Positions 37,804-60,579 of a stretch of 64,000 bases of DNA are shown here, piece after piece. A program made the position numbers and the translations under genes. The notes under the pieces were generated by a model. That model ran no database searches. It was given only the letters and a program-made list of their open reading frames with translations, and was not told where the DNA came from. The stretch covers positions 3,840,001 through 3,904,000 of the forward strand of contig OZ241917.1 of the NCBI GenBank assembly GCA_965203805.1, written 5' to 3'. Origin of the DNA: Candidatus Latescibacterota bacterium (GTDB taxonomy: Bacteria > Latescibacterota > UBA2968 > GCA-2709665). Position 1 is the stretch's first letter. Each line of letters starts with the position of its first letter.

Positions 37804-37933
37804 AGGGCACCGGAACGCGGGTGTTTTCCATATTGTGGCAGCGTGATTTCGATTTTTCTTGCCCTTTCGACCAGAATCAGACATAATATTATCACTTATT
37901 ATTAAATATAGACAATTTGTCCGAGCCCGAACC

Positions 37934-42878: not shown

Positions 42879-45800
42879 ATGGCCGATCTTGATGCCGGAA
42901 CGATCGTAGACGGACACTATGAGATTATCGCGCCGGTCGGGAGTGGGGGTATGGGAACCGTTTATCGTGCGCGCGACGTCCAGGATAATGAGACCATTGC
43001 GTTGAAGATGCTTAACATTCCGAAACACGGAGCGCAGCGTAGGTTCTTAAGGGAGTTTAGCATCCTGTCCAGGATCCGTTACCCCCGAATTGTACGCTCA
43101 CACAGGTGGGGGGTGTACAAGGGAAGACCTTATTTTTCCATGGATTACGTCCGGGGTCGGACTCTGTCTGACGTAATTGACGACGCGGTGGACCACGAGA
43201 AGCTGAGAACGACGTGGTTCCTCCAATTTGTACAGCAGATTGGCGATGGATTGGTGCACATCCACGAACAGGGCCTGATACACCGGGACTTGAAGCCATC
43301 CAACATAATGATTTCCCAAGCTGGCGGAAATCTCTACGTTACGATTATGGATCTGGGACTCGCACGATTTCAGGAGTCGTTTTACGGGCAACTTACTCAG
43401 CCCGGGACGACCACAGGTACGGTGGAGTATATATCTCCAGAACAGATCCGTGGTCGGTCTGTCGACCAACGTTCTGACTTGTATTCGCTGGGGGTAATAC
43501 TGTACGAAATTCTCACCGGGAAACCGCCGTTCTGCGGCGGAAATCCAGCTTCGGTAATCTTTCGGCATCTCAGAGATCGACCCCGTACGCCTCACGTGCA
43601 AGGCATTCACGACCGGATCACGAGCGTGGTCCTGAAGCTGCTGGAAAAGGATCCGATTGACCGCTATAACTCTGTTCGGAGTCTTCTTCAGGATCTGCGG
43701 GAAAACGCCAGTGCCAAATCCGCTATTGGGATCGGGACTCCTTCTGCTACAAAGCCACCCGATCATTTTTTGCAACCCCAATTTCAGGGCCGGGAAAGTG
43801 AATTGATGGTGCTTCGGAAGGTTCTGAGCGAATCTCGCGATAGTGTGACACGAATGGTCCTGATTAGCGGAGAGGCCGGAATCGGGAAATCTCAGCTGCT
43901 GAATGAGTTCCAAGCCGATGCCCGCGTTCACGGGATGCGTATCCTTAGCGGGCGTTGTTATGAGAGCGGTGGGCGGGCATACGGTCCATTCCTGAAAGCG
44001 TTGACGGACCTGGCAGGGAGGCCGGGCAATCAAGGTTCGGATCTGGAAGTATCCGTTATGCGGGTTCTGGCGCAAATTGAACAGCTGGCGGATAACGATC
44101 AGAATGATCCTTACGCAGTGATGGAAATTTTGTCGGAGTTCTTCCGGATCCTTAGCCGTGAAACACCTACCCTCGTTTGCGTGGACGATATTCAGTGGGC
44201 AGACGATCTGAGTTTGCGGTTTCTGGATTTCATGAGACGCGATACAGACCCATCGAAACTCTACTTCGGCCTGACGTGCCGGAAGGAGGGCGAAGACCAG
44301 TTGCCGGCTCGTATCGAGGCGGTATTTCCCAACGCAGACGGACCCGGAATCGCCCATTTGAGACTCGAGCCGCTCAGTTTTGTGGAAATCAAGAATCTTG
44401 TTGCATCCATACTAGGCGAACCGACCGTGCCGGATGACGAAGCCCGCAGAATTCGTAGGGAGACAGGTGGAAATCCTCTGTTTGCCGTCGAACTGGTCCG
44501 CGGGGCCATCGATGATGGCTCAATTCACCAGGACATTTCAGGCGGGTGGACATGGTCGCGGTCAACCGCGTGGCCCATGCCCGCGGGCATCACGCAGGCG
44601 ATCGATTCGCGTCTCCGTCGGTTGCGGTCTGACGACCGCCGGGCGCTGGAATACGCTTCGATTTTTCGGGGGGCGGTTTCATTCGATCTGATTTCGGAAA
44701 TATGGCGCGGCGATAACTTGCGGTTGCTGGAAGCACTTGAAGGGCTTGTCCGCCTGGGTCTTCTGAGAGCTCTCGAGGACAGCGAGGGGCGGTACCGGTT
44801 TTCTCATGGGTTGATCCAGCGGGCGGTTTACCACGGTATCTCAGAAAAGAAACGCGAACTGTTGCATCTGGAAGCAGGCCGAGCCCTGGAGCCGCGATTC
44901 GAGACGGACTCGGATGAGACGTTGGACGATCTGGCTTATCATTTCTCAAGGTCGAACGACATCGAGAAAACGGTGAGTTGGGTACTGGCAGCTGGTCGCA
45001 AGGCCGTTAATATGAGTGACTTTATACAGGCTGTAGACCACTTTGAAACCGCAATTAAAAGAGGCGCGTTCTTGGCGGATGCGCCAGATAGGATTTGTGA
45101 GGGGTCATTGCATTACATTGATTTTCTCTGCGCATATGCGGAAGCACTTTCCGGATGTGACAGGTTTGACGAAGCCCTAGCCGAGTTGGAGAAGGCCATG
45201 CGGTGGATTTCCAACGATACGCCCGCTCAAAAGGCCGCCGCCCTTACTATGTTGGGTATAAACCACTCAAATTCGGGGGAATTTAAGAAGGCCGAATCGG
45301 TGTGGATGAAAGCTCTGAGCCTTTACCGAGATCTGGGCGATGATGAGAACGAATTGGTGACCCTAGGACTTCTATCGAACGTCTACTTGGATCTGAACTA
45401 TAACAAAGCGGCGGCTAACTATTTTCGCTTGGCCGCTGAAAAGTGCCAGCAGCTAGGTGGCGCTGTAAACAATGCTCGCGCGGAGCTTTTTCTCGCATTT
45501 GAGGCAGAATTGGAGTGCCGAACTGAAGGAGCAAGAACGCTTCTGCAGTCTTCGCTCGATCAGTTGGATCAGAACGGAGACCGTATCTATCGATATTCAT
45601 GTTTGTACCAGTTGGGGCGCATTGAATTACGCTTGGGAAATCTTGACCGTGCGCAGGAGATTTTTCAAGAGCTTCTAGTCTTCTGGCGCAGGTGCGGATC
45701 GAGGAGTTCTGAAGCCAATGCCAATTTGTATCTCGGCAGGATTGCACTGGAACAGGGAGACGCCAACGGCGCGGAATCGCAGGCTCGTGCCGCGGAGCGA

Positions 45801-47741
45801 CTTGCTGTGGATCGAGATCTATGCAATGAATACCATAGGGCTTGTGCGCTTCTCGCCGAGATAATGGCAGAAAGCGGACGTGTCGATGAGGCTCTTTCTT
45901 GGGCTGAACGGGCATCTCCCGGTGTAGACGCCGGCGACGATATGCGCAGTACGGTTCTGACAGCTAAAGCAAAAGCTCTCTCGGCCGCGGGCCAAGATGA
46001 AAATGTCCAATCGCTATTGGAAGTAGCACTTCAAAGCCAGGACGCGCAGCCAGCATCGGAACAGGTACGTCTTCTTCTCGTTGCAGGAATACACCATTTG
46101 GACAGGGGTCAATCCGAGGATGCCCGATGTTACCTGGAGAGAGCCAAACGTGGAGCGGAGGTGATGGGAATGAGTTATTTATCTCGTAAAGCTTCCGACA
46201 TGATTGGCAGAATTCCAGTTCAATTCCGCGAGGAGTCAAACGTAGACCAGTTGGCTCGTGGACTTACTGAGAAGCAACTTGCGACACTTTACGAAGTGTC
46301 AAACGATTTGACGTCTGTGCTCGAATTGAATACGCTACTGGATCGAATTCTTGATCGGCTAATAGGAGTAAGCAGAGCCGAACGCGCTGTAATTGCCCTT
46401 AAGGACCAGACGGCGCAAGGTGTTCAGGCGGCACGTGTCTACAACCTAGAACATGCGGCAACACAGGAGATTAGCAGAAGCGTTATTAGGGAGTCGATGC
46501 GACGAAACGAACCGATTTTATGTGTGAACGCGCAGGTTGATGAACGTTTTGGTCAGCAGGCGAGTGTTGTCGCGTACGGCATCCGTTCGGTGCTTTGCGT
46601 CCCTCTACACCATGAAGAGTTGGGCGTAATTGGAGCGTTGTATATAGACCACCGCGGCATAGAGGACCTATTTGCGGAACGGGACCGGGCCATGTTATCG
46701 GCCTTTGGGAATCTGGTATCCATTGCGGTTGTCAATGCTCGGATGTACTCGCAAATCAGGGACCGGGCGCTATTCTTTCAGAAGCAGATCGAGGGTCGCC
46801 ACCAATTGGAAGAACTGATCGGTCAGAGCCGGGCGATGCAGGACGTGTTCAGCCTGGTTGACGTTGCGGCGGAAAGCGACGTGACCGTACTGATTCAGGG
46901 TGAAACCGGAACGGGCAAGGAACTGGCCGCTCAGGCCATCCACGCACGCAGCGAACGAAAGGAACAGCCTTTCATGTCGGCCAATTGCGCCGCGCTCACC
47001 CACGAACTGCTTCAGAGCGAACTCTTCGGTCACAAGAGGGGTGCCTTCACCGGGGCCGTATCCGACCGAAAAGGGCTGTTTCTATCCGCGGACGGCGGCA
47101 CGGTATTCCTGGACGAAATTGGAGATGCTTCTCCACAATTGCAAGCAAGCCTATTGCGGGTACTTCAGGACGGTGAGATACAGCGAGTCGGTGAGACGGT
47201 GGTCCGGAAAGTAGATGTCAGGGTGATCGCAGCCACGAACCGCGACCTGGAAGCGGATGTTCGCAACGGCTTGTTTCGAGAGGATCTATACTATCGCCTG
47301 AGGGTATTGCAGATTGAGATGCCGCCCCTTCGTGATCACATTGACGATATTCCGCTGCTGTCGGAGCATATTCTGAAACGTGTCTGTGCGGACCAGGGTA
47401 AGTCTGTGCCGGGTTTTACCGTAGGGTCAATACAGGCAATGATGGGTCATGAGTGGCCGGGAAACGTGCGAGAATTGGAAAACGAGATCAGACGCGCGGT
47501 TGCCCTGGTAGAAGAAGGCAAGGAAATCGCTGTCGATCTATTGTCCGAGAAGATCGGGCTTCACGAAAAATTGAACGGCCGGGAACGCGGTTATTTCAAA
47601 GCAAGTGTGATGGCCGTGAAAAGGAGGATGATTGTTGAAGCTCTCGGCAAATGCGGCGGGAATATCACTCGCACAGCCGATCAACTCGGGCTGAGCCGAA
47701 ACGGGCTTCAAAAGATGATGGCACGTTTCGGCATGAGGTGA
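42879..47741 (+). CDS. Ser/Thr kinase-STAND ATPase-TPR-GAF-sigma54 enhancer-binding activator with Fis HTH
   Basis: Kinase: [35 protein letters not shown]: [33 protein letters not shown]: [16 protein letters not shown]. Activator: [49 protein letters not shown]: [14 protein letters not shown]. Confidence 0.93.
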
Positions 47742-47882
47742 TTGCATGCAAAGATATTGTTAATGGATGTAGCCGGCGTGCGCAACAAATGGTGAGGGCA
47801 CGACGTCGACGTCGACGATGTGCCACCTGTTATGAGATACTGATATTAAATGAGTTAAACGTACAATATCCGTGAAACACCA

Positions 47883-47915
47883 CAAATAGACGTATAAAGT
47901 GTATACATCTATTTG
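47883..47915. promoter_or_regulatory. Inverted repeat, putative upstream activating sequence
   Basis: CAAATAGACGTATA-AAGTG-TATACATCTATTTG has 14-bp arms with one mismatch. It lies about 90-120 bp upstream of the -24 element. Confidence 0.6.
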
Positions 47916-48001
47916 CTTAGGACTGGCTGAAGACTATAGACATATTGTTATAATCTATTGTTTTTAAATCGCTTGTGCAACTGCATGAGCGATTTTTTTA
48001 T

Positions 48002-48017
48002 TGGCATGCCAATTGCT
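48002..48017 (+). promoter_or_regulatory. sigma54 (-24/-12) promoter
   Basis: TGGCATGCCAATTGCT versus consensus TGGCACGNNNNTTGCW. GG at 48003-48004 and GC at 48015-48016 give exact N10 spacing. Directly downstream of a sigma54 activator gene. Confidence 0.85.
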
Positions 48018-48071
48018 ATAAACGTAACACGATAAATGCCAAAGCTTGTCCGCCCAAAAGGAGGAAGAATT

Positions 48072-48275
48072 ATGAAATCCGATGGATCCAAGAGGAATCT
48101 GCGTGCGATTAATGCAGCCGTAGGTAGGAACGGCAGGATCAACAGCTATCTGACATCGTCCGAGCCGTTTAAGGGGTTTGTCTGCACCTGGCCACGATTT
48201 CGCGTACTACCCCCTCCCACCAAGACAGTGGCCCACGTAGAGGCGTTCACCGAGGGATCTAGTCATTCGGGTTAG
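48072..48275 (+). CDS. Putative RiPP precursor peptide (67 aa, PapA-like leader)
   Basis: Strong RBS AAAGGAGGA before ATG. MKSDGSKRNLRAINAAVGRNGRINSY-LTSSEPFKGFVCTWPRFRVLPPPTKTVAHVEAFTEGSSHSG. Lies between the sigma54 promoter and the radical SAM gene. Confidence 0.78.
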   Translation: MKSDGSKRNLRAINAAVGRNGRINSYLTSSEPFKGFVCTWPRFRVLPPPTKTVAHVEAFTEGSSHSG

Positions 48276-48324
48276 GGCGTGTTTTCAGATTAAAGCGCGC
48301 CGCCAATCCGTAGGGGGAAATCAC

Positions 48325-49806
48325 TTGCTAAAGATTAAAAGATGTGAAATGCATCTTTTTAGGACGCCGCAAACTATCCATGCAATTGTATTCCAGGTCC
48401 GCACAGGTATTTTTTTCGAATTGGACCCGGTCTGCGAATCGATCTTGAAACGATGCGACGGGCTTTCGGCCGAAGCTTCTGTCTCCGAACTTGCTACTGA
48501 GCACAATCGTGACGATGTCCTCAATTCTATCGAGGTTCTGGAAAAGGTAGGGTTAATATCCGACGCTTCCTTGCAACTCCTTTCGTCGACAACATTGTAC
48601 GATGAACTGCCTTGCGAGAACCCAGGACTTAACAACTACTCAGATCCGTTTCATGTCACACTTCACGTGGCGCATGCGTGCAACATCAAATGCGCCTATT
48701 GCTTCGCCCATGGAGGCGACTACGGCGGACCGCCGGGTTTGATGCATCTCGACGTCGCGCATCAGGCCGTACGATGGGCGTTGGTTTCAGCCATCCCGCA
48801 CAAGAGATGCCAGATCGACTTCTTCGGCGGTGAGCCGCTACTGAATTTCGAACTGATTCAATCGACCGTGCCGTATGCCCGCGAATACGCCCATGAGTTA
48901 GGGGTTGGGGTATCATTTGGTGTAACTACCAACGGATCTTTGCTATCAGAAGAAATAGTCCAGTATCTAACTGGCGAAGAAATCCAGGTTATGGTTAGCG
49001 TAGATGGAAACGCGGCTATTCAAGATCGACTTCGAAAGTTCAATGACGGTAGCAAAACCTTCGATGTTGTGGCTCAAGGAGTCAAAAGGTTAACCCAGAA
49101 GTCGGCAGGGCAGGTGACTGTACATGCAACGATGACATCATTCAATATGGACGGAGACGCAATTGAAAGGGACTTGGAAAAACTAGGTGCGGCTCAGCTA
49201 GAGTTCGCTCAAGTCGTGGCATCCCCGAATGTTCCCTATGCATTTCGAGAGGAGCATCTTCCGGAGTTAAAGCGCGGACTTTACAAGAAGAGCAAGCGAG
49301 AACTTGAGGCAATTCTCAACGGTTCGCAGAATGCCGGATTTTTCGATGAATATATAGAGAGGTTGATGAGACGTGATAATGTCTGCCATGGCTGCCAGGG
49401 CGGGAAGACATTTTTCGCGGTGGCTGCGGACGGCGCGATCTATTTCTGTTCCAGTTTGGCGGACAGCCCGGAATTTAAGATGGGGGATGTATTCGCCGGA
49501 TTGGACGTACAAATCCAAGACCGAATCAAAGAGACGTTTCAGGTAGACAACCGAACCGATTGCCGGGCCTGCTGGGCAAGGAATCTGTGCGGCGGAAGCT
49601 GTTTATTTGATGCACGTACTTCAACCGGGGATCCGTTGAAACCCAATCCGGTGTCGTGCGAACAGATACGGTATCGATACGAGTTGGCGATGGAGATGAG
49701 TTTGGAAATCCAAAACCGAGACGAGGGGATTCTTAGAAACAGATACGATTTGGAGTGGACAGATCAAGAAGATGAACCGCCCCAACATTGTATTAGTCGC
49801 GAATAA
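48325..49806 (+). CDS. Radical SAM/SPASM peptide maturase with N-terminal RRE (CteB/PapB-like)
   Basis: RRE-like N-terminus (HLF...IVFQVRTGIFFELD), CNIKCAYCF, FFGGEPLLNF, TTNGSLL and SVDG...QD.LR. SPASM: CHGC...IYFC...CRACWARNLCGGSC...C. Confidence 0.92.
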   Translation: MLKIKRCEMHLFRTPQTIHAIVFQVRTGIFFELDPVCESILKRCDGLSAEASVSELATEHNRDDVLNSIEVLEKVGLISDASLQLLSSTTLYDELPCENPGLNNYSDPFHVTLHVAHACNIKCAYCFAHGGDYGGPPGLMHLDVAHQAVRWALVSAIPHKRCQIDFFGGEPLLNFELIQSTVPYAREYAHELGVGVSFGVTTNGSLLSEEIVQYLTGEEIQVMVSVDGNAAIQDRLRKFNDGSKTFDVVAQGVKRLTQKSAGQVTVHATMTSFNMDGDAIERDLEKLGAAQLEFAQVVASPNVPYAFREEHLPELKRGLYKKSKRELEAILNGSQNAGFFDEYIERLMRRDNVCHGCQGGKTFFAVAADGAIYFCSSLADSPEFKMGDVFAGLDVQIQDRIKETFQVDNRTDCRACWARNLCGGSCLFDARTSTGDPLKPNPVSCEQIRYRYELAMEMSLEIQNRDEGILRNRYDLEWTDQEDEPPQHCISRE

Positions 49807-49941
49807 TGACTGTTGGGGATGGCTGAGACAACGTCAACCGCCAGTGGATTTCCACTTGAGTCGCACGTCTTCGTCGGCGCTTGACTCGACCCGAATTCCG
49901 AAACCACTTGAGTATGGTTCTTATGAGACAGGATCTGAATC

Positions 49942-51111
49942 GTGCATAAGTGTGACCCACGAACTACAGTGGAATATCCGCTCGCCGTCTTCACACCTCA
50001 GGTTGGAACTGTTTCGGAGACCTTCATTCGTCGGCATGTAAATGATCTGTGCACTGGCGCATCCGTTACGATTACCTGTCAAGTCGGCGACCCGGTAAGA
50101 TCCAGTTGGAACTTTGTTGGACCGATGTTGGTTTTGGATCACGTAGAGCCGGTTCGTTTCACACGAGAGACAGGCTGGGAGTTCACTTCGAAGCACCTTA
50201 ACGCGATAAAGGGGTTTTTACAGGAACATCACGTTCAGATTGTGATGGGAGAATACCTGGATGTCTGTTTGCCTCTATTGGAGATCGCTGTAGAGTTGAA
50301 GATTCCATTTTGGGGGCATGCTCATGGCTACGACATTTCCATGCGCTTGCGCGATCACCGGCTTCGGAATGCATACCGCCGCTATAGGGAGGCGGCTGGA
50401 ATTATTGTGGGCTGTGATTGGGCCCGCAAACGGTTAATCCGTTTGGGTTTGACGGCAGACAATGTTCATGTGGTCCCATGCGGTGTAGACTTACCTAAAC
50501 AGCCTGTGGTTCGATCTCACTCGGAATATATCCGTTGCTTAGCCGTGGGTCGGTTTATTGAAAAGAAAGCACCTCTTGTAACGCTGGATGCATTCCGGCA
50601 GGCTATGACGGCATGTCCAAGATTGCGATTGCACTATATCGGTTCAGGTGATTTGGTTCCGTCGGCCCAAGAGTATATACGAAATCATGATTTGGTGAGT
50701 TGTGTCACGCTTTACGGTAGTCGATCTCACGATTTCGTGAAACAATCGATGCAGTGGGCGGATATTTTCCTACAACACAGTATGACCGATCCGGCAACTG
50801 GCGACCAGGAAATGATGCCAGTTGGGATTCTGGAGGCAATGGCAAACAGCCTGCCGGTAGTTTCGACCCGGCATGCGGGAATTCCCGAGGCAGTAGAAGA
50901 GAGTATAACAGGGTATCTGGTAGATGAAGGTGATAGCAGCGGTATGTGCGACTGCATTGTTCAACTGGCACAGAATCGTGAGTTGCGCAAACGAATGGGA
51001 TGTGCAGCCCGTGAGCGCGTCAATGGTCGTTTCTCCTGGGACCTTGAACGCACTGCTTTGTTGGAATTATTAGACCTTAGATACGTGGCCAATCGCTTTG
51101 GCGCTTCATGA
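49942..51111 (+). CDS. GT4-family glycosyltransferase (WcaL-like; start may be GTG 49969)
   Basis: SETFI, HAHGYD, VGRFIEKK, ADIFLQHS.T...GDQE..PV.ILEAMA..LPVVSTRHAGIPE. Confidence 0.92.
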   Translation: MHKCDPRTTVEYPLAVFTPQVGTVSETFIRRHVNDLCTGASVTITCQVGDPVRSSWNFVGPMLVLDHVEPVRFTRETGWEFTSKHLNAIKGFLQEHHVQIVMGEYLDVCLPLLEIAVELKIPFWGHAHGYDISMRLRDHRLRNAYRRYREAAGIIVGCDWARKRLIRLGLTADNVHVVPCGVDLPKQPVVRSHSEYIRCLAVGRFIEKKAPLVTLDAFRQAMTACPRLRLHYIGSGDLVPSAQEYIRNHDLVSCVTLYGSRSHDFVKQSMQWADIFLQHSMTDPATGDQEMMPVGILEAMANSLPVVSTRHAGIPEAVEESITGYLVDEGDSSGMCDCIVQLAQNRELRKRMGCAARERVNGRFSWDLERTALLELLDLRYVANRFGAS

Positions 51112-51292
51112 GTGGGAAATGACAGAGGCGTCTCTCTAATGGATGTGTAGATTTGATGCGCATTGAGGTTCGCCATAGGGTCGTGGATCGTGCCTTTGAA
51201 GCCGAAAAAAGTGTTTCATTGTCAGAAAATATCCAGTCAGATGCACCGGTCTTGGGACGATACAACTGGCGGGCCTTGGAGCATCTGAGATA

Positions 51293-51883
51293 ATGCACAG
51301 ACTCGACGACGATAATGAGTATTTCGCGCTTGTAATGTTGGACGTTCGGACAGCGTTTTTCGACATCCAACGTATATTGCAGGTGGACCAGGAAAAACAT
51401 CCCGATTATGACGTCTTGTTTGTAGTCGGACGCGATGTACGGGACAATTTGAATCGGGCGTTACGGCAACGAGCCCCAGACGTTACGGTAATACCGAGGA
51501 AGGACGCAGCGTCGCATCTGGCCCTCGCCAAACTCGTCGAGGCACGCCAAAGATATTCACATGTTCTTGCGGAGAGACTGGATCGCTATCTCGAGACGCA
51601 CTTTCAGAAGAAGTCGCTGTCATTGGGAGATTTGCGAGAGAGTTTTCAAATTTCATCGAGTTATATTACCCGGCTGTTCCGGGAACACGTAGGGATGTCA
51701 TTTCGAAAACGGTTGAATTCGTACCGTGTACAAAAAGCCAAGCACCTGTTAAAAACTACAGATCAGACAGTGGATTGCATTGCAAGAGAGGTTGGATTCA
51801 GGAATCACGCACGGCTGACAGAAGCGTTTTACAGGTTCGAAGGCATGCCGCCGGGCCGGTTTCGCAGGATGTGTGTTTTTTGA
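51293..51883 (+). CDS. AraC-family transcriptional regulator (start uncertain)
   Basis: YLETHF....LSL..L...F.IS.SYI.RLF....G.SF...L...R...AK.LL......IA..VGF....L...F....G..P..FR. Confidence 0.85.
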   Translation: MHRLDDDNEYFALVMLDVRTAFFDIQRILQVDQEKHPDYDVLFVVGRDVRDNLNRALRQRAPDVTVIPRKDAASHLALAKLVEARQRYSHVLAERLDRYLETHFQKKSLSLGDLRESFQISSSYITRLFREHVGMSFRKRLNSYRVQKAKHLLKTTDQTVDCIAREVGFRNHARLTEAFYRFEGMPPGRFRRMCVF

Positions 51884-51938
51884 GACTTCGTAATGTAGGA
51901 AATCCAAGTCAGGCAGGACAAGCTGAGGTTGTTGCCCT

Positions 51939-52889
51939 ATGGTTACGGTCAAAAACATGCCGGAAGGAACTTCACACCGGGTTCATTCATCCGCTGTCGT
52001 CGGAACCGGAACAATGATTGGGGATTATACTTCGATTATGAAGGGGGTAATGGTTGGCGCAGAATGTGAAATCGGACAACATGTGGTAATTCACCCGGAT
52101 ACGATAATTGAAGATGGTGTGCGTATTGACGACCATGCGACGATCGGGAAGTTGCCAATGAGAAGTGTTGCCAGCGCTTTCAATCGAAGTGACCAGCCCG
52201 AGCCAGCAAGGATCGGAAGCGGCTGTTTGGTTGGTACATCAGCGATCCTGTACCGAGGGTGTCGAATTGGAAATCATGTCCTGATTGCTGACCAGGCGAC
52301 TGTACGAGAGGATAGCACGGTGGGGGATTATACGATTATTGGACGGAACGTCGCGCTCGAAAGCCAGGTAATCGTAGGGAGGTTGTGCAAGATTGAGGCA
52401 GGAGCGTATGTTGCCGGACCTTCAGAGATTGAGGAAGGTTGTTTTGTTGCCCCAGGCGTGGTTGTTACCAATGACAACTTCATGGGCCGGACGGAAGCCA
52501 GAAAACGGAAATTTAGAGGGATTAGAATTGAAGTCGGAGGCCGAATTGGTGCTAATTCTACAATCCTCCCCGGTAAACGAATCGCGCCTGATGGAGTGGT
52601 GGCCGCAGGTGCGGTTGTAACACGTGACGTGCCGGCGCGCACGGTGGTTTCCGGACTCCCTGCGCGTTATCTCCGCGATGTAACGCCCGAGGAGTTTTGG
52701 CGGCATCAAGAACCAGTGGTACGCGGTGACCTCGAAATGGAACCCCGAGGCACAGATTCCAGTTCACGAGAATGCGAACGGAACAGGGGGTCGGCAGAAG
52801 AGGGTCGCCTAGCGGGGTACTTCTTCAACGAATTGACATTTGAGTATCAAGAACTACCTGGAAATGGGGGATCGGCATTTGGGAATTGA
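51939..52889 (+). CDS. Hexapeptide-repeat acyltransferase (WbpD-like sugar N-acyltransferase)
   Basis: Left-handed beta-helix repeats, with FVAPGVVVTND, IGANSTILPG and VAAGAVVTRDVP...VSGLPAR. Confidence 0.88.
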   Translation: MVTVKNMPEGTSHRVHSSAVVGTGTMIGDYTSIMKGVMVGAECEIGQHVVIHPDTIIEDGVRIDDHATIGKLPMRSVASAFNRSDQPEPARIGSGCLVGTSAILYRGCRIGNHVLIADQATVREDSTVGDYTIIGRNVALESQVIVGRLCKIEAGAYVAGPSEIEEGCFVAPGVVVTNDNFMGRTEARKRKFRGIRIEVGGRIGANSTILPGKRIAPDGVVAAGAVVTRDVPARTVVSGLPARYLRDVTPEEFWRHQEPVVRGDLEMEPRGTDSSSRECERNRGSAEEGRLAGYFFNELTFEYQELPGNGGSAFGN

Positions 52890-53460
52890 AATGGGGCCGC
52901 AGCATTATGACAAGGTATACGAGTCTACGGAACTCTACCGCCTTCACTATTCGCAGTCCCGCTGCTACGAATTATGGAAGCGGGTCTTGAGGTTTATGCG
53001 GGTATTTCCGTCACCGCGTGTTTTGGAAATCGGGTGCGGAACCGGGCAGTTTGCGCATATGCTCTGGGATACGGGCTATAGGCAATACCATGGTTTCGAT
53101 TTCAGTACCGCAGCAGTTCGAATTGCGACGGGTGCCTGCGAACAGTCGTTTACGGTCGCTGACGCAAGAAAGCCTGAAGCATATCAATGGAATTACAATC
53201 TGGCGCTTGCAATCGATTTTCTGGAACACGTTGAAGACGATTTTGAGATCCTTGGACACATTAGTCCGGGGACGCCACTTGTATTTACCTTGCCGACCTT
53301 CGATGATCCAGCGCATGTGAGATGGTTTCGGCATCCGGACGAGATCTATGATCGGTATGGAGTCTGCATCAGTTTTACAGGTTTATCGTTTGTCAAGCCG
53401 TGGTTCGTGTGTCTGGGACACGTGGCTCGACCGGCAGTGAAATCTGTACCATTGGTTTGA
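52840..53460 (+). CDS. Class I SAM-dependent methyltransferase
   Basis: VLEIGCGTG, YHGFDFS, VADA and FLEHVEDD. Confidence 0.88.
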   Translation: MSIKNYLEMGDRHLGIEMGPQHYDKVYESTELYRLHYSQSRCYELWKRVLRFMRVFPSPRVLEIGCGTGQFAHMLWDTGYRQYHGFDFSTAAVRIATGACEQSFTVADARKPEAYQWNYNLALAIDFLEHVEDDFEILGHISPGTPLVFTLPTFDDPAHVRWFRHPDEIYDRYGVCISFTGLSFVKPWFVCLGHVARPAVKSVPLV

Positions 53461-53519
53461 GTTAAACCGTCGTCGATATCAAAGAAATCCCGATATCCAA
53501 TCTGTCGAAGAGATGATGC

Positions 53520-54305
53520 ATGTCACCTATCTGGGACTCTGATTTCAGTTACGCATATTTTGAAAATATCCTCGAAGTTGCGAAACGCAATTATTGTCTG
53601 AGTCTCCTTGGTGACGCTCCAGAGGTACTACAGCGACCTTCCGCAAGGCCGCGGCTATTCCTTCGCCATGACGTGGATTTCGATTTGGGTGCGGCGCTTA
53701 GGTTGGCGGAAGTAGAGAGCAGGTTCAATGTCACTGCCACCTATATGGTTATGGTCAATTCCCCTTTCTATCGTGCAGACACGAAGCACGCAAGTAGCAT
53801 ATTCCTTCGTCTTATGTCACTGGGACATGAAATAGGTTTACACTTTTACTTTAGGCGGTGTGCTTGTTTGGGCGAGGACGTCGGGGTCGATGCCTTGTTG
53901 CCAGAAATACAAAATGCATGCGCGCAACTTGAAGATAGTATTCGACTTCCTGTAACGTCCTTTTCTCTTCATCGTCCGTTAAGCCGGTTCTTGGGTGGCG
54001 ACTTGCTTGTCGGTGGGAAAGTGAATGCATACGCAGGTGTTCTAATGGATTGGTATCTGTCTGATTCAAAAGGATCCTGGCGCGAAGGAGAACCGCTGCC
54101 GAAACTGTTAAATCCAGTACGTCCAAATTTGCAGCTGTTGATCCATCCCATTTGGTGGGGCGGCAGTCGGATTGCACCAAGGATGCGCTTAGAACGGTTC
54201 CTAGATGAAAAGGCTTGCGGTCTGACCGCACATCAACTGAAGGAACTAAATGCTACACTCCAAGAATATGTCACGATCCCGAATTTAAGGATTCGTGGAG
54301 GCTAA
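53520..54305 (+). CDS. Polysaccharide deacetylase-like (NodB/WbmS-like) protein
   Basis: LRHDVD, ATYMV, GHEIGLH, FS.HRP, YLSDS...W and LQLLIHPIWW. Confidence 0.8.
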   Translation: MSPIWDSDFSYAYFENILEVAKRNYCLSLLGDAPEVLQRPSARPRLFLRHDVDFDLGAALRLAEVESRFNVTATYMVMVNSPFYRADTKHASSIFLRLMSLGHEIGLHFYFRRCACLGEDVGVDALLPEIQNACAQLEDSIRLPVTSFSLHRPLSRFLGGDLLVGGKVNAYAGVLMDWYLSDSKGSWREGEPLPKLLNPVRPNLQLLIHPIWWGGSRIAPRMRLERFLDEKACGLTAHQLKELNATLQEYVTIPNLRIRGG

Positions 54306-54380
54306 CTTCGACGGAAAAGTCGTGTGCATGCTGCGCAATGGATTCTCGTAGTTAAGACAAAGACCGGGGGGAATAACGAA

Positions 54381-55097
54381 GTGCCGATTGTAATGAGTGC
54401 GCATCAACCCAATTGTTTGCCCTGGCTGGGTTTCTTTCACAAAATGACCTATAGCGACGTATTCGTTTTTCTGGATGATGTTCAATTTACAAATAAGACA
54501 TATACAAATCGGTACTATGTGAAATTCAACGGCAATAAAGTGCGCCTAAGCGTACCTGTGCTTAAATCAAAATCGCTTCGAAAGATAAGAGAGATCGAAA
54601 TAGACACTCGTATGTTCTCGTACAAACACATTCAGACATTCCATCATGCGTACGGGAAATCTATCGGTTTTGATGAGATATTCCCAATTCTCCTTCCGCA
54701 CTTTGAGATGGGAAAAATCAATCTTGCGGAATTAAATATGGGGCTCATTAGGGCACTGGCAGACTATATGGAGTTGACACCCCGATTTATAAGGTTGTCG
54801 GATCTGGGACTCAAGAGTAAGAAAAACCAGCTACTAATCGATATAGCTAAAAAATGTGAAGTGGACATTTTTGTTTCAGGAGTTGGCGCCAGAGCCTATA
54901 TCTCAGGTCACGAATACAGATATGCAGAGAAAGGGATATTATTGGCATTCCAGAATTTCATCCATCCTGTTTACGTCCAATCAACCGGCCCCTTCCTGGC
55001 AGGGTGCAGTATTGTCGACTTGCTATTTAATACTGGAAGACTTGCTCTGGACCATCTAGTCAGCCAGAAGCAAGCTCCATACATATATGCTAAGTGA
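54381..55097 (+). CDS. WbqC-family protein
   Basis: HQPN.LPWLGFFHK...DVFVFLDDVQF...NR, LSVPV, SG.GA..Y, F.HPVY.Q and SIVDLLFN.G. Confidence 0.9.
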   Translation: MPIVMSAHQPNCLPWLGFFHKMTYSDVFVFLDDVQFTNKTYTNRYYVKFNGNKVRLSVPVLKSKSLRKIREIEIDTRMFSYKHIQTFHHAYGKSIGFDEIFPILLPHFEMGKINLAELNMGLIRALADYMELTPRFIRLSDLGLKSKKNQLLIDIAKKCEVDIFVSGVGARAYISGHEYRYAEKGILLAFQNFIHPVYVQSTGPFLAGCSIVDLLFNTGRLALDHLVSQKQAPYIYAK

Positions 55098-55185
55098 TAT
55101 AGGGCGCGGAAAAGTGCTCAATGAACTCCTAAGGGTTTGAGGTCGGCCGGCAGTTCGTACCCTTTAATGCTTCGGATGGTTAACG

Positions 55186-56709
55186 GTGCTAATACTCACA
55201 GGCGTCTGCATCATTGCGGCGTTGGTTAGAGTTATCCCTCGGTTATTCGCGCCAGCTATGGTCACCGATACCTATGGGCATTGGATCCTAATAAAAAAAA
55301 TAAGGGAAAAGGGTATTATCGAGGCACATAATGATGTGCACTATTACCCGTTAGGCTTTCATTGGCTGCTCAGTTTTATTCCAGATAGACTTTTGCCCCA
55401 TTGGGACCGGATCAATGGGGCCTTTTTTGACGTTTTACACGTCGTCCTCTTTTCATTCGCAATTTGGAGGCATTCGGTCGAAAGCAAAATGCCTGATGAA
55501 ATTGTGTGGGGCTGGGCGCCGTTACTTCTGGCGCTATCTCCGGCCTGGTTATCGTTGGGGCGAGGCCCAAGAGCTTACCATGGCACTGCGCGCGTATTTG
55601 GTGAGTTATTGGTCAGCGGAGTCTTCGTATGTATTTGGATATACCAGGATACTGGTTCGATGGAGTGGCTGACTTGTGCGATCATTGTGAGCGTAGTACT
55701 GATGCTATCGAGCAAATTTGGCTCGCAGGTCCTTTTGTCGTTCTGTTTGATTATTGGCGTACTCCAACGCAGTATCATTCTAATGTCTATACCTTTTGTC
55801 TCAGGTCTGCTGGCATATGCGTTCTCAAAGAAGGCATATGGCACGATTCTTAAAGGGCATATCCGTCATTTAAAATGGTATGCGAGCAATATCAAAAAGA
55901 AGAGAATGTTTATTGCAAACCGTAACTCCCTCCGGGAAATATGGCGGATATACAGGCAATCTGGCATTCTAGCGGCTGCGTACAGGTTTTTTGGTGTAAA
56001 TAGCGTGGGTGTAGGGATTTTTCAACATCTAATTTTGATAGTCGTCCTGATCCAAACCGGCGGAAGCGACGTATCTGGTACGTTGCCAAATTACCTATGG
56101 CATTGGTTGTTCGCGGGCGTCTGTCTGTGGATGCTTTCTTCCATGAAATTTCTGTTGTTTATCGGCGCTGCTGAAAGGTATCTCTTTGCAATGGCGATCC
56201 CGGAATACATCCTGATCGCAGACTACTTGCTCGATGGTCCGGCAGGAGCACGCTGGGTGATACTCTTCGGATCTGTTTTCGTTTGGCTAGTCTTCGTATG
56301 GCAGATGCGCATACAGTATGGTGGGTACTATTATTTGGAGACCAAAGCAAGAAAACAAACCATAGGTTTTCTTAATACGCTAACTTCAATGAGACTGCTC
56401 ACGTTCGACCGATCGCCTGCATGGGACATAGCATATAAGACCAATCACCACCATTTTATGATTGTTCCGGAATTTGACGCAACATCATCATGGGATGATC
56501 TCTTTGAATATGATACATATCCCAGCTGGAAGGCTGTGTCCCTTTTAGATCTACGATTAATTGTAGTGAGTCGCGAGGCAGTGATGGATGCCATACGAAA
56601 GAAGATCCCTGTTGCATTTCCGTTTTCGGAGCTTGAGAAGCTGTTCGACAATGGAATGTATCAGGTATATCGTGTGCCAGAGTCCTTGTTTCATCCAATC
56701 GGGTCCTGA
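55186..56709 (+). CDS. Multi-TM protein, possible GT-C-fold transferase
   Basis: TDTYGH, YYPLGFHWLL, about 11 TMs, ERY, and a soluble C-terminal domain ending LEKLFDNGMYQVYRV. Confidence 0.6.
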   Translation: MLILTGVCIIAALVRVIPRLFAPAMVTDTYGHWILIKKIREKGIIEAHNDVHYYPLGFHWLLSFIPDRLLPHWDRINGAFFDVLHVVLFSFAIWRHSVESKMPDEIVWGWAPLLLALSPAWLSLGRGPRAYHGTARVFGELLVSGVFVCIWIYQDTGSMEWLTCAIIVSVVLMLSSKFGSQVLLSFCLIIGVLQRSIILMSIPFVSGLLAYAFSKKAYGTILKGHIRHLKWYASNIKKKRMFIANRNSLREIWRIYRQSGILAAAYRFFGVNSVGVGIFQHLILIVVLIQTGGSDVSGTLPNYLWHWLFAGVCLWMLSSMKFLLFIGAAERYLFAMAIPEYILIADYLLDGPAGARWVILFGSVFVWLVFVWQMRIQYGGYYYLETKARKQTIGFLNTLTSMRLLTFDRSPAWDIAYKTNHHHFMIVPEFDATSSWDDLFEYDTYPSWKAVSLLDLRLIVVSREAVMDAIRKKIPVAFPFSELEKLFDNGMYQVYRVPESLFHPIGS

Positions 56710-56804
56710 ACCCCATCTAAATGGATAGAACAAAAGGGCACAGGGCCGGGATAAGACTCTTACTCGCACAGTCGCAGGGACGCGTTCGTTTCCCGTGAAC
56801 TGAA

Positions 56805-58589
56805 ATGCTAATTTCAAAAGCCCAATCGACCAGTCTGTGTAAACGATTCGGAATCGTAGCCTTGAGTTTACTTTCCGCGTTATCCTTCGGTGTGACCTAC
56901 GGATGGTCTGATCAGACAGTTTACATGCTTCCCGGACTCAAGTTGGCAAACCCTTCTCTATGGAACAACGACTGGCTTGTATCGGAGACTACACACCCTC
57001 ACGTCGCGTTCAATTACCTCGTTTATGCGCTTTCAATGATTGGTCCTGTTGAGTGGACAACGGCGGCACTTCATCTGGTGATGATGTTTGCGGTAGTCGT
57101 AAGTGTTTTTTTCCTTCTCGCCGGCCTGTATGAACGCCCACTCTTGCCGTTTTTGTTCTCGCTTGTTCTCTTGCACATGATTTTTGGCAGGGTGGTCTTA
57201 TCTCATGGGTTCTTCCTGCCGTTGCTGTTGCCGACGAATATTGCGGCGTGTTTTTTTCTCGTGGGTATTGCGACGTTAACTCGCGCAGTAAGGCAATGGT
57301 CGAATACAGGGCGCCAACCGAATTGCCCTACAGCGGCTGCGCACGGCCTACGTTTTCTTGGGCTTTATGGGTTTTTCGTTTCTGGTCTGCTGTTTGGCCT
57401 CAGTGGTCTTTTTCACGGCACTTTTCTCTGCCTGGTTCCGGTGTTTCTGGTGGGTTTGCTAATTTGCCGGCGAATGGCTGTATGTCAGGTGGTTGTCCTT
57501 GGCGTACCGTTCTTCGTGGTGATTCTTCCTGCCCTCTGGTGGGCCTTACGCTCATTCGTTGTGGACGAGGCGGGAAGTCTTGAAAGGTTAGACGAAATCG
57601 CACGTATCCGGATTCCGCATCACTATCTGCCATCGACTTGGGGAAAAGAAACGATATTGATGTTTGCTGGTAGCATGTTGCTGGGTGCGATAGGGATCAT
57701 CCTGAGACGGCCGGCGAGAAAGGAAGCTTCAGTCGTGTTCGCCTCGGTAGCCTCAATCGCGGGCGTTTCAGTCTTGGTGTTCTTCTCGACTGTTGTATTC
57801 TTCGTGCCTCAAATTGCTATGCTTCAGACTTATCGATTTGTGGCATTTCTCTCGGTCTTCAGTGTCTTGTTTTTTGCGGGTGCAATTGCAGGGCAGGTCG
57901 AATTAGCACCGAGTTCGCGTTGGGCTTTGAAGACTGGTGTAACGTACATATTTGTGGCAATTGGGCTATCGGTCGCGTCTTGGATAGATGTTTACGTTGG
58001 GATCACTCTTGGGGTACTGTATTTGTTCGGGCTGGCAGGAACACAGTTAGAATGGCATCGTCCAAGTTTATCATGGATTGGGGAATTATCGCTCATTTTC
58101 GTCGTAACAATCTTTGTTGGCTTGTACGCTGTTGAACGATTTCCATATTCCAGGCAGGCATTGATACCGGTACAAAAATCGAGAGCCGCACTATTTAAGT
58201 GGGTGCAAGAAACTACCCCGAAGGATGCGGTCTTCATTGTGCCGATCGATTTACAGAGGTTTCGGCTGCACACAAAACGCAGCATCGTAGCTGACTGGAA
58301 AGGCAATTCATATCGACTTGAAGACGTGGAAGAGTGGGTCCGCCGAATTCGCGCAGTTTGTGGAAATCCGATGGCCTATTCATACCGTGAGCTGTATAGA
58401 GGATATCAGACAATGGAAGTAAATAGAGCTCGACGGTTGGCCGATGAATTTGGAGCACAGTATGTGGTCGTTAAAGCCTTTCAGCACAAGGGTCATCTCG
58501 GCGAATTTGAAAGGGTTTATTCTCGAGGTGGGTTCTTGGTCTACCGAATTTGTCGGTCGATCGCAATTTCGGAGGAATTCGTCACATGA
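56805..58589 (+). CDS. Multi-TM protein with DUF6798-like domain
   Basis: NP.LW.NDW, RIPHHYLP..W, WVQETTPKDAVF..P...FRL...RS.V.DWK, W..R and FLVYRI. Confidence 0.7.
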   Translation: MLISKAQSTSLCKRFGIVALSLLSALSFGVTYGWSDQTVYMLPGLKLANPSLWNNDWLVSETTHPHVAFNYLVYALSMIGPVEWTTAALHLVMMFAVVVSVFFLLAGLYERPLLPFLFSLVLLHMIFGRVVLSHGFFLPLLLPTNIAACFFLVGIATLTRAVRQWSNTGRQPNCPTAAAHGLRFLGLYGFFVSGLLFGLSGLFHGTFLCLVPVFLVGLLICRRMAVCQVVVLGVPFFVVILPALWWALRSFVVDEAGSLERLDEIARIRIPHHYLPSTWGKETILMFAGSMLLGAIGIILRRPARKEASVVFASVASIAGVSVLVFFSTVVFFVPQIAMLQTYRFVAFLSVFSVLFFAGAIAGQVELAPSSRWALKTGVTYIFVAIGLSVASWIDVYVGITLGVLYLFGLAGTQLEWHRPSLSWIGELSLIFVVTIFVGLYAVERFPYSRQALIPVQKSRAALFKWVQETTPKDAVFIVPIDLQRFRLHTKRSIVADWKGNSYRLEDVEEWVRRIRAVCGNPMAYSYRELYRGYQTMEVNRARRLADEFGAQYVVVKAFQHKGHLGEFERVYSRGGFLVYRICRSIAISEEFVT

Positions 58590-59803
58590 AGGTCTGCATG
58601 ATTACGTTTCAATATCCGCCGGTGTTTAACGGGGGTGTAGGGAGTGTCGCCTTCCGATTGGCTAGGAATCTGGCGTCGGCAGGAGTTGACGTGCATGTTA
58701 TCGCTCCGGGTACCCATCATTTGGATGACCCGATAGCGCCTGCCTCCGAGGATGGAGCAATTGTCCACCGAACTTATCCGGCGCTTGGTTCCTACTTTGG
58801 AGACCATACCCAACTGGGGCGAATCGGCGACCACGTAATCAAATTGCATCGCGAGGTGGATTTCGATTTGGTACATGCTTTGTTTCTGGTGCCGGCGGGA
58901 CAGTTAGGCGCGATTGTAGCTGGGCAAATCGACCGGCCATTGGTGGCTAGCGCTCATGGAAGCGATATTGAATTGATGCGGTACAACCCGGCGCTGATCG
59001 GGACATTGCGGTGGGTACTCAATGAGGCGGATATCGTTACGGCTGTTAGTGCTGAGTTGCTGAACAAAGCACAAAGATTCGCCAACATAAGGGACGGGAG
59101 AGTTATTCCGAATGCTTTCGATCCGGAATCGTTCGAGCCGTGGTCCCTTAAGGAAGTATCGGCCAACCAGGGATGGCGGTTTCAGGTATTCGTGGAGTCG
59201 TTTTTGCGTACGAAACGGCGTGGCGGGCCGGTGATCGGCACAGCCGGGATGATTCGACCTGCTAAGGGTCTCCCGGTTCTGCTGGATGCTTTTCATAAGT
59301 TAATGGGGACGGTGTCAGATGCGCATCTGCTGATAGTAGGTGATATCGTAAACCCCCAGGATAAGAAGAGATATTTAAGTCGAATCAAGACTATGGGATT
59401 GAAACGAAAGGTAACATTGACCGGTTCGGTACCGCCAAGGCAGGTGATGGCCTGGATGCGGGAAATGGATGTTTTCGCCCTTCCGTCGTTACATGAAGGA
59501 TCTCCTTGCGCATTGATGGAGGCGATGGGTTCTGGGCTCGCCGTAGTCGCGACGAACGTAGGCGGAATACCAGACCTCGTGACGGATGGTGTGAATGGAA
59601 TGCTGGTTGACTACGGCGACTCAGGGATACTGGCGGAGAAACTGTCCGCATTGTGTCTTGATACTGCGACCCGCGCCCGGCTCGGCATTGCTGCGAAGCA
59701 AACAGTCGAAACCGGCCTCCTGCCGAAAGACGAAACGGAAACCTGGCTGGACGCGTATTGTTCTGTCATTGCTGAAACATGCCCGCCCGAAATTGTGAAA
59801 TAA
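58586..59803 (+). CDS. GT4-family glycosyltransferase
   Basis: MKVCMITFQYPP..GG, HGSD, TAVS, IPNAFD, KG..VLL.A and LPSLHEG.P..LMEAM..G..VVATNVGGIPD. ATGA overlap and GGAGG RBS. Confidence 0.93.
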   Translation: MKVCMITFQYPPVFNGGVGSVAFRLARNLASAGVDVHVIAPGTHHLDDPIAPASEDGAIVHRTYPALGSYFGDHTQLGRIGDHVIKLHREVDFDLVHALFLVPAGQLGAIVAGQIDRPLVASAHGSDIELMRYNPALIGTLRWVLNEADIVTAVSAELLNKAQRFANIRDGRVIPNAFDPESFEPWSLKEVSANQGWRFQVFVESFLRTKRRGGPVIGTAGMIRPAKGLPVLLDAFHKLMGTVSDAHLLIVGDIVNPQDKKRYLSRIKTMGLKRKVTLTGSVPPRQVMAWMREMDVFALPSLHEGSPCALMEAMGSGLAVVATNVGGIPDLVTDGVNGMLVDYGDSGILAEKLSALCLDTATRARLGIAAKQTVETGLLPKDETETWLDAYCSVIAETCPPEIVK

Positions 59804-60579
59804 CAACCATTGAATATTGTACGTGTGTACCTGGTGAATATTGGAGTGGACTATTTGGCCAAAACCAAATCGACGCGAATATTGAGTAGGTTTGTTTCTC
59901 TACAGGAGTCACCCGAGTTTCGTAGAATCTAGCTGGAAGTCGGTATTGCAGTCCTTGGTGCGCGTGTTCCTAGCTTTGGAAGATGATATATAATGCGAGG
60001 GTCACATCTGAAGCTCGGGTACGGTCTCTTAGCTCTTCTTGTGAAGGCTCTGCATTTGACGGGCTTCGCGGCCGTTCAACGAAGGCCTTGTCTAGGACAC
60101 GTTCCTGGCTGTCCGTGCGGATGAGGGTGTTTTTCCCCTTGAGGCGATTGCTGAACCGTGGATACGTAAACTAAGAATCGTGATGGGAGCTTAAAATGTC
60201 GGGCGTGGCCTTACTCAGGGCCTTTTGTCGAGCGCGCTAAAGCGGAAAGCCGCCTTCAGCGCACCGGAGACCGGCTGAGCAAGCAGATATTGGCTAATCC
60301 AATCCATCGCTGCCTTCAGATAGAAAAACTAAAGCGACCGGCGCCCCGGGTAGGTAATGTCGGTGCGCAAGACCGGATTGGGTAGGTTGATCACTAGATT
60401 CCGCAGTCGGTCAGGATAGGCAAGATAGTCTGGTGTTGGGCCGCGGATTGATCGTTTCCAGCACATCTAATCAAACCCGCACGGTCTTGCAGTTGACTCA
60501 GTAACCCAATCTCTACAAGAACAGATAATTCGTCGACGCGAGATCCCTAGAGACGCGTTCGGGTATTCTGCTGAGCAAT

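Follow-up and report, generated by a model that had tools for sequence, protein, structure and literature searches.

A sigma-54-controlled radical SAM peptide cassette of Latescibacterota and the sugar genes behind it

We analyzed a stretch of 64,000 nucleotides (hereafter the window) from the genome of a Candidatus Latescibacterota bacterium (GenBank assembly GCA_965203805.1, contig OZ241917.1, positions 3,840,001 to 3,904,000 of the forward strand). A first-pass annotation had proposed that a row of genes at window positions 42879-59803 may form one cluster for a cross-linked and glycosylated peptide or a peptide-linked modification of a surface glycan. The locus is best described as that of a ranthipeptide-like RiPP (peptide made by ribosomes and then post-translationally modified) with an unusual wiring and an undescribed family of single-cysteine precursors and CteB-like maturases, plus a lineage-specific glycan island as cargo. 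As judged by sequence comparison, the conserved unit consists of an activator gene, a sigma-54 promoter and a gene pair for the peptide and its radical S-adenosylmethionine (rSAM) enzyme. We are highly confident that this cassette is an autonomous element of the Latescibacterota, which is largely shown by comparison; the combination of this conclusion with a second one, that the sugar genes behind it are interchangeable cargo, is held with moderate confidence. A single integrated system for peptide maturation and glycosylation is only partly supported: the RiPP part of the proposal stands on the conserved cassette, whereas the fixed partnership with sugar genes does not, given that homologous units of activator, peptide and rSAM gene occur without sugar genes in 34 of 41 loci, including a second copy in the same genome.

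To our knowledge the Latescibacterota are a phylum without cultured members. The rSAM family occurs in 26 of the 168 genomes of this phylum, carriers making up 4 of the 15 genomes in the window's genus and 19 of the 31 in family f2. Outside the Latescibacterota, the collections searched yielded no rSAM/peptide cassette. Two to three full-length rSAM homologues are present in most carriers, and two in the window's own genome. For the comparison of neighbourhoods, 39 rSAM loci were taken with 10-kb flanks. An orthologue of the activator lies 5' of the rSAM gene in 36 of these (two of the three misses have less than 700 nt of upstream DNA), and a profile search places a peptide open reading frame (ORF) directly 5' of the rSAM gene in 38, the remaining locus having a divergent candidate found by eye. 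Of the 31 sequences behind this profile, 25 come from the 39 loci; the hits at the other 13 loci are independent. A -24/-12 promoter element is present at the same place in all 37 loci checked, as GGCAC-N5-TTGC at most 150 nt from the peptide start in the g6 loci (31/31) and as GG[CT]A[CT]-N5-xTGC in the loci of genus g1 (6/6).

The precursor gene (48072-48275, + strand; ribosome-binding site AAAGGAGG in front) encodes a peptide of 67 aa with a leader motif L10-x3-N14, a single cysteine (Cys38) and a proline-rich stretch (PPP, residues 47-49). The 31 aligned peptides share 16-53% identity with that of the window; N14, C38 and P49 are invariant and C38 is the single invariant cysteine throughout. 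In the alignment the leader is conserved (RKLTLINGxIDxEGxI in g6), the cysteine is followed by some six variable residues, and then comes the proline-rich motif, in g6 with an acidic tail behind it. No Pfam or NCBIfam family is matched by the peptide, and no signal peptide was recognized in it by eye. A profile search of 1.84 billion proteins returned 20 representatives, and a word-index search with the peptide returned only itself. The locus thus adds a precursor family outside Pfam and NCBIfam, with an invariant cysteine, a hypervariable six-residue stretch and a proline-rich follower, together with a distinct branch of CteB-like maturases. As a separate observation, a 642-aa protein with SRCR repeats (P0015) matches the leader profile five times (LRLVNGxxxxEGRIEIY), which may be chance or mimicry of a host-type domain start; Pfam gives no backing to a kinship of the leader with SRCR, which it finds in 0 of the 31 peptides.

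The maturase gene (48325-49806, + strand) encodes 493 aa, in which a putative, PqqD-like RiPP recognition element (RRE) is followed by radical SAM and SPASM domains. The best match among solved structures is CteB (5WGG), aligned over residues 21-456 (E 3.8e-54). Twelve of 12 homologues retain the three cysteines of the CxxxCxxC radical SAM motif (C119, C123 and C126) as well as the SPASM cysteines (C357...G370-x4-C375, C413-x2-C416-x5-C422-x3-C426 and C445), the SPASM motif being defined as C-x9-15-G-x4-C ... C-x2-C-x5-C-x3-C ... C. The enzyme remains under all curated NCBIfam cut-offs (score/cut-off in bits: TIGR03974 SCIFF 243/425, TIGR04064 nif11 236/519, TIGR03906 QhpD 234/453, NF047865 PapB 223/340), and the families closest by these scores are, without exception, thioether-forming maturases or relatives of these. 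The enzyme-peptide pair was predicted as a complex with a score of 0.82, the best of three controls reaching 0.00; of 157 solved complexes 116 attain the pass mark, and of 215 mismatched pairs 2 do. This pass may reflect likeness to the CteB-leader complex and is to be read as likeness rather than proof, because a similar complex with its leader is known for CteB. The prediction runs agree in at least 66% of contacts with a partner pLDDT (the model's own per-residue confidence) of at least 53, and place leader residues 8-17 on enzyme residues 27-34 of the putative RRE and core residues 35-46 in the barrel. Overall, the CteB alignment, the invariant cysteines, the conservation of activator, promoter and peptide and the predicted complex bear out the view that this is a real, CteB-type and sigma-54-controlled RRE-rSAM/SPASM peptide locus, and a conserved one.

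Because the precursor has a single cysteine, one thioether ring would be the most economical product; an acceptor residue cannot be named, as no Asp, Glu or Thr is conserved after the cysteine in the g1 peptides. In ranthipeptides the thioether joins the cysteine sulfur to a carbon other than the alpha carbon. With the SCIFF/CteA-CteB system of ranthipeptide maturation (PDB 5WGG) the cassette shares the (putative) N-terminal RRE, the radical SAM core, the SPASM domain with auxiliary clusters and a short precursor gene directly upstream. It differs in its much lower score against TIGR03974 and in its precursor, which has one cysteine (C38) in 67 aa where SCIFF precursors have six in about 45 residues. 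It also differs in being present in two to three copies in most carriers, in its sigma-54 promoter and giant kinase-fused activator, and in its restriction to Latescibacterota within the collections searched. PapB and QhpD enzymes link a cysteine sulfur to a beta or gamma carbon. The corresponding PapB/freyrasin and QhpD/QhpC systems score similarly to SCIFF, again under the cut-offs; the cassette differs in that a Cys-X3-Asp repeat is missing and the g1 peptides have no conserved acidic acceptor next to the cysteine.

The giant activator that had been recognized 5' of the peptide gene (42879-47741, + strand, 1620 aa) is confirmed and turns out to be more than had been described, namely a fusion of a Ser/Thr kinase and a STAND module to a sigma-54 activator. 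Pfam places Pkinase at residues 14-268, AAA_16 at 301-457, TPR/MalT-like repeats at 786-1088, GAF at 1149-1284, Sigma54_activat (PF00158, 239 bits) at 1313-1480 and HTH_8 at 1582-1616; the motifs HRDLK (135), the catalytic lysine (K43) and GAFTGA (1388) are intact. The features of a sigma-54 enhancer-binding system are therefore all present: an AAA+ domain with GAFTGA, a C-terminal helix-turn-helix (HTH) and a GG-N10-GC pair at -24/-12. In the NCBIfam scan of the locus, the GPMC-system families NF038229/30 are scored far under their cut-offs. A large Ser/Thr kinase also stands beside certain precursors of thiazole/oxazole-modified microcins (TOMMs), according to Haft et al. 2010 (PMC2887384), and the large kinase-STAND-TPR protein beside RiPP genes is the point of likeness: the N-terminal part of our activator scores 264 bits against TIGR03903, under the cut-off of 705.75. 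The two differ in output (GAF, sigma-54 AAA+ and HTH domains rather than a cyclase) and in the maturase, which is an rSAM enzyme and not a cyclodehydratase. For a RiPP locus, wiring through a 1620-aa kinase-STAND-GAF sigma-54 activator is unusual. In Rgg/SHP-controlled streptide (StrA-StrB) and other regulator-wired rSAM RiPPs, a dedicated regulator likewise switches on a peptide and its rSAM maturase; streptide differs in the class of regulator, has no sigma-54 and carries another cross-link.

A sigma-54 promoter and an inverted repeat had been placed between activator and peptide, and both are there. The promoter TGGCATGCCAATTGCT (48002-48017, + strand; GG at 48003-4, GC at 48015-6) is near-consensus, with one mismatch to TGGCAC-N5-TTGCW, and is one of two one-mismatch sites in the 64 kb. 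Sites with at most two mismatches number 16 against 25 expected by chance, so the consensus match alone is weak evidence and it is the conservation in relatives that counts. About 100 nt before the -24 element lies the inverted repeat CAAATAGACGTATA-N5-TATACATCTATTTG (14+14; 47883-47915), a candidate upstream activating sequence with a TGTATACA-type motif that is conserved in congeners. With at most two mismatches allowed, the palindrome motif TGTATACANTGTATACA has three sites in the whole genome of 5.87 Mb, of which two belong to the two cassettes (reversed control: 0); the third (C1:1499490) has neither a -24/-12 element nor an activator nearby. Farther upstream, a 28-nt palindrome GGCACGACGTCGACGTCGACGATGTGCC (47797-47824) might be a distal activator site, and a similar element, GACGTCGAC, is seen in one paralogous locus. 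Directly 5' of the promoter a GC-rich hairpin with a T run (47966-48001, + strand; inverted repeat at 47966-47995) may serve as terminator of the activator gene or as insulator; hairpin and T run also precede the promoter in the loci of genus g1, and a T run does so in g6.

The activator and its promoter are also found with other cargo. Five of five congeners without the rSAM family (G012, G013, G009, G008 and G014; loci L095-L099) keep the genes for a GT2 glycosyltransferase and a family-5 solute-binding protein (SBP5), followed by a full-length orthologous activator of 63-69% identity. This activator is followed by two ATGTATACAnTGTATACA palindromes, by a hairpin plus T run and by the promoter element TGGTACGAAGATTGCA. 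Downstream stand TPR proteins in tandem (700-1256 aa), some of which match GWxTD weakly. G012 has a DDE_3 transposase, a 42% relative of the one in the window, between promoter and TPR cargo. Retention of activator and promoter without peptide and rSAM gene suggests that the sensor and promoter are a stable module with exchangeable cargo, which in turn makes read-through expression of downstream genes plausible. The same sensor and promoter with different cargo in sister species provide a natural example of the reuse of a regulatory module.

In the window, the gene row behind the promoter has the order and the common + strand that the first-pass annotation had assigned, all of its genes being recovered with Pfam and NCBIfam. 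The rSAM gene is followed by a GT4 glycosyltransferase, GT4a (49942-51111), an AraC-type regulator (51293-51883, HTH_18 at residues 100-192), a hexapeptide-repeat acyltransferase (51939-52889) and a class I SAM methyltransferase (to 53460; start ATG at 52864 or 52891, ORF opening at 52840). Next come a 261-aa protein without a Pfam family (53520-54305), a WbqC-family protein (54324-55097; Pfam, 192.8 bits), two polytopic membrane proteins, TM1 (55186-56709, 507 aa) and TM2 (56805-58589, 594 aa, with DUF6798), and a second GT4 glycosyltransferase, GT4b (58586-59803). The overlapping stop and start codons also described there are seen as an ATGA overlap at TM2/GT4b and as an overlap or 1-nt gap between the acyltransferase and methyltransferase genes; together these tight junctions point to translational coupling within the sugar set. 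No terminator-like site was found in the intergenic gaps between 48275 and 60207, from the peptide gene to the last GT4; the sites in that span lie inside ORFs, and the total count of sites, 19 against 18.6 expected, is at chance level. The first terminator-like hairpin with a T run past the row stands at 60207-60230 (+ strand), and a DDE_3 (IS630-like) transposase (60580-61701, - strand) bounds the set.

The neighbourhood comparison indicates that this sugar set is not a fixed partner of the cassette. Window-type sugar genes behind the rSAM gene are found only in the nearest relative, G001, which has six of the nine (GT4a, AraC, acyltransferase, methyltransferase, TM1 and GT4b); there an extra rSAM gene stands in front of the sugar genes, and the deacetylase-like 261-aa gene, WbqC and TM2 have no counterpart. 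Conserved synteny of peptide, rSAM, GT4, WbqC and DUF6798 genes, which had been named as the pattern to look for, was consequently not observed, and TM1 occurs in only 3 of 168 genomes of the phylum. The second cassette of the window's genome has no window-type sugar gene at all; it is followed by five ORFs whose lengths and order match those of a congener locus with genes for a propeller, an AhpC-like protein, an ABC exporter, a rhodanese and a subtilase. Two further genes, cl43 and cl44, lie directly 3' of the rSAM gene in G002 and 3' of GT4b in G001, from which it follows that the sugar set behaves as an insertion. The other loci have a mixed downstream content of transposases, defence genes, further RiPP genes and genes of unrelated metabolism. 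At 49.2%, the GC content of the sugar island falls close to the 1st percentile of 12-kb windows; the genome as a whole has 59.0%.

Several observations weigh against the interpretation of an autonomous cassette with interchangeable sugar cargo, as does the resemblance to the CteB-leader complex noted above. The peptide/rSAM pair has a GC content of 50.3%, as low as that of the island, and composition cannot separate the two for this reason. A GT4 gene lies within about 10 kb 3' of 7 of the 41 cassettes, against 13 GT4 hits in the 5.87 Mb of the window's genome, a count on which no statistical claim can be based because the loci are related by descent. At L033, in another family, the cassette is again followed by orthologues of GT4a and GT4b, as well as by an NHL propeller and an M61-like gene; in all, GT4a orthologues stand behind the cassette in two other genomes. 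Glycosyl transfer may even be an ancestral part of the system, as suggested by the interleaving of glycosyltransferase and rSAM genes in the deepest-branching relatives.

This interleaving involves a second rSAM/SPASM-like gene, rSAM2, which lies 3' of the maturase gene at six loci: L090 (G077), L091 (G079), L028 (G010), L065 (G038), L093 (G080) and L058 (G001). In more distant members of the cassette family (rSAM 42-44% identical), from two genomes of family f3, the order activator, peptide, rSAM, GT9-like, rSAM2, GT4, receiver and GAF histidine kinase is kept between two genera, and rSAM-rSAM2-GT4 is found in G010, G038 and G001. The rSAM2 proteins form a clade of their own in which CxxxCxxC is missing in five of six and kept only in G001, and they may be non-catalytic partners. 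The second gene is probably ancestral, since the lineages that branch first in the rSAM tree (FastTree, midpoint root) have it; rSAM2 and a glycosyltransferase may both have been there at the outset and have been lost in g6 and at the window locus. It might be argued from this that the cassette family makes a glycosylated thioether-bridged peptide, with a catalytic rSAM, a mostly degenerate rSAM2 and one or two glycosyltransferases acting ancestrally on a single-cysteine precursor and an unusual-sugar set recruited in the window genome, and with a eukaryote-like kinase/STAND sensor setting off the whole from a single sigma-54 promoter, in an uncultivated phylum associated with sponges. We regard this as doubtful, though the interleaving is a testable lead to glycosylated rSAM peptides.

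For the window itself, a related explanation is that the cross-linked peptide is glycosylated by GT4a and perhaps by further glycosyltransferases, with the tailoring enzymes making an unusual sugar and the whole row being one cluster. The ancestral-looking rSAM2 arrangements of f3, G010, G038 and G001 speak for it, as does the grouping of the rSAM2-linked GT4s of four genomes in one clade (SH-aLRT branch support 99 in a quick tree). The missing terminator between rSAM and GT4a points the same way, and so does one g6 locus with GT4-GT28, GT4, a CAAX protease and a C39 ABC exporter on the 3' side. In addition, NCBIfam already has a GT4 family defined by linkage to rSAM peptide maturases in Bacteroidota (TIGR04157), but GT4a and GT4b reach only 32 and 57 bits against its cut-off of 400. 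GT4a moreover falls outside the rSAM2-linked clade; it groups with the sequences of G001 and L033, and this group is sister to the GT4 of an unrelated operon elsewhere in the genome. No GT4 is near 34 of the 41 cassettes, three of the nine sugar genes are missing in the nearest relative, and the peptide has no signal sequence that would direct it to GT-C enzymes of the periplasm. Besides, the toolkit of lipid-linked surface glycans comprises NeuD-like, WbqC and deacetylase-like enzymes and GT-C-like membrane proteins. Overall, we consider glycosylation of the window peptide rather unlikely.

The same evidence bears on two other explanations. The matured peptide could be an autoinducer sensed by the TPR/GAF part of its own activator, with positive feedback and with the cargo (remodelling of a surface glycan) as output. 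Most carriers do hold two or three paralogous sets of activator, peptide and rSAM gene, the six hypervariable residues after the cysteine stand beside conserved flanks as in pherotypes, and in RRNPP systems TPR receptors bind peptides. Against this, five of five congeners that lack peptide and rSAM gene keep the full-length activator with promoter and other cargo, which argues against an activator that needs the peptide as ligand; no exporter or binding protein is consistently adjacent, and the peptide lacks a signal sequence. Such a circuit thus seems improbable. It is very improbable that the small ORF is no substrate at all, the rSAM enzyme acting on another protein or a sugar and the 67-aa frame being a conserved leader or untranslated region. 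The PqqD match of the enzyme's N-terminus (19.6 bits against a Pfam cut-off of 23.4) and the fact that no product has been seen would fit that explanation, but in 38 of 39 loci the ORF stays open and has a ribosome-binding site, its conservation is at the level of amino acids (N14, C38 and P49 among the divergent sequences), and the leader pairs with the RRE in the predicted complex far above the controls.

We accordingly retain the reading of an autonomous cassette with interchangeable cargo, and propose that it works as follows. The kinase/STAND/TPR/GAF activator would sense a signal, bind the TGTATACA-type palindromes about 100 nt upstream and open the -24/-12 promoter, giving a transcript predicted to encode the precursor and the CteB-like RRE-rSAM-SPASM enzyme. 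The enzyme would hold the leader (L10-N14) on the RRE strand, and the invariant Cys38 would most likely be converted, to go by the enzyme family, into one intramolecular thioether ring in the proline-rich core. The cargo behind the promoter would be interchangeable and, in the window genome, consist of the low-GC set of nine genes bounded by an insertion sequence (IS). Transcription from the sigma-54 promoter probably continues into this set and is modulated there by an AraC regulator of its own. The N-acyltransferase, methyltransferase, deacetylase-like and WbqC proteins would tailor nucleotide sugars, and the two GT4 and two GT-C-like membrane proteins would transfer them. The product, judged by gene content, is most likely a modified surface glycan, without the set being a fixed partner of the peptide.

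The identities of the sugar genes are in line with this assignment to varying degrees. The acyltransferase is nearest to the NeuD/PglB/VioB sugar N-acetyltransferases (126 bits, NCBIfam cut-off 160.8), enzymes that act on nucleotide amino sugars. The 261-aa protein was found near 'polysaccharide deacetylase' clusters (0.98) by language-model features only, which makes it a lead only. The same holds for the GT-C-like character of TM1, whose feature search gave unnamed and PMT_2-bearing clusters at 0.97-0.99, the PMT_2 clusters at 0.97 with only 26-32% of members carrying the family. TM1 has no match in Pfam, NCBIfam or a PDB sequence search, and its AF2 model from 8 sequences, with a pLDDT of 47, is too poor for use; for TM2 the PDB sequence search gave nothing meaningful. 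TM1 and TM2 have no detectable relation to each other (hhalign probability 0.2). In the AraC protein the N-terminal half is unassigned, and it does not resemble the receiver domains that relatives carry at the corresponding position. As suspected from the first reading, standard O-antigen machinery is not recognized: among 50 scanned ORFs of the window, Pfam finds no Wzx, Wzy, ABC polysaccharide exporter, initiating phosphoglycosyltransferase or sugar dehydratase, and TM1 and TM2 match no family of this kind. Compared with variable modification islands of O-antigen or exopolysaccharide (NeuD/PglB/VioB acetyltransferases, WbqC, WbmS-like deacetylases, GT4, GT-C), the region 49942-59803 is alike in gene content, low GC, border IS and presence or absence among close relatives. 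It is unlike them in having no recognized flippase, polymerase, initiating transferase or sugar-nucleotide synthesis genes in the window, and in sitting behind a sigma-54 promoter with no terminator between.

Our literature search found no description of the cassette among sigma-54-wired or glycosylated rSAM peptides or Latescibacterota RiPPs, and nothing relevant on WbqC and glycosylated ranthipeptides. In one paper (PMC12993501), antiSMASH 'ranthipeptide' clusters in metagenome-assembled genomes of sponge Latescibacterota are listed without analysis.

On the 5' side of the activator in the window lie the GT2 glycosyltransferase (39634-40650) and SBP5 (40647-42548) genes, both on the + strand and joined by an ATGA overlap. 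GT2 stands 5' of the activator in 16 of the 39 related loci. Among the 14 other genomes of the genus, 13 have an SBP5 orthologue (77-87% identity) and one has only a 52-53% paralogue. Beside the second cassette of the genome lies an SBP5 fragment with four in-frame stops (C1:1928489-1929253), and a similar partial copy is seen in G002; these fragments suggest a segmental duplication of GT2-SBP5-activator-peptide-rSAM with later decay.

Some neighbours of the cassette in other genomes deserve mention. Twelve g6 loci (L030, L035, L044, L047-L049, L051, L055, L056, L059, L061 and L062) have a 331-aa sensorless sigma-54 activator and a 1094-aa UvrD-like helicase fusion shortly 3' of the rSAM gene, in most of them directly behind it, and a GntR-ABC-CAAX protease set 5' of the giant activator. 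A 302-aa protein without a Pfam or NCBIfam family, in which a class I methyltransferase-like GxGxG motif is visible by eye, lies 3' of the rSAM gene in 15 of the 39 loci (e.g. L031:11587-12492) and is missing from the window. Further RiPP machinery stands 3' of the cassette at two loci, with ThiF-like, nitroreductase, ABC-2 and YcaO genes at L028 (12307-21431) and, at L037 (12824-21419), a cNMP-binding C39 ABC exporter together with a GT4-GT28 fusion and a CAAX protease. The unrelated operon with the closest GT4a paralogue (L094, G000:C1:1404000-1421000) consists of GT4, a PhyH dioxygenase and an rSAM/SPASM protein in which a SEC-C motif is C-terminal. That rSAM, which shares about 28% identity with the query, is found in every other genome of the genus searched.

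Within the window, a Macro-domain protein beside a DarT-like ssDNA ADP-ribosyltransferase (7736-9660, a patch of 44% GC) resembles a DarTG toxin-antitoxin or defence pair, and a protein with an AbiEi-type antitoxin/regulator domain (37859-38524) lies just 5' of the GT2 gene. An aminoglycoside 3-N-acetyltransferase-family protein (6204-6968) and an FAD-dependent, Trp-halogenase-like oxidoreductase (23653-24921) are encoded on the - strand.

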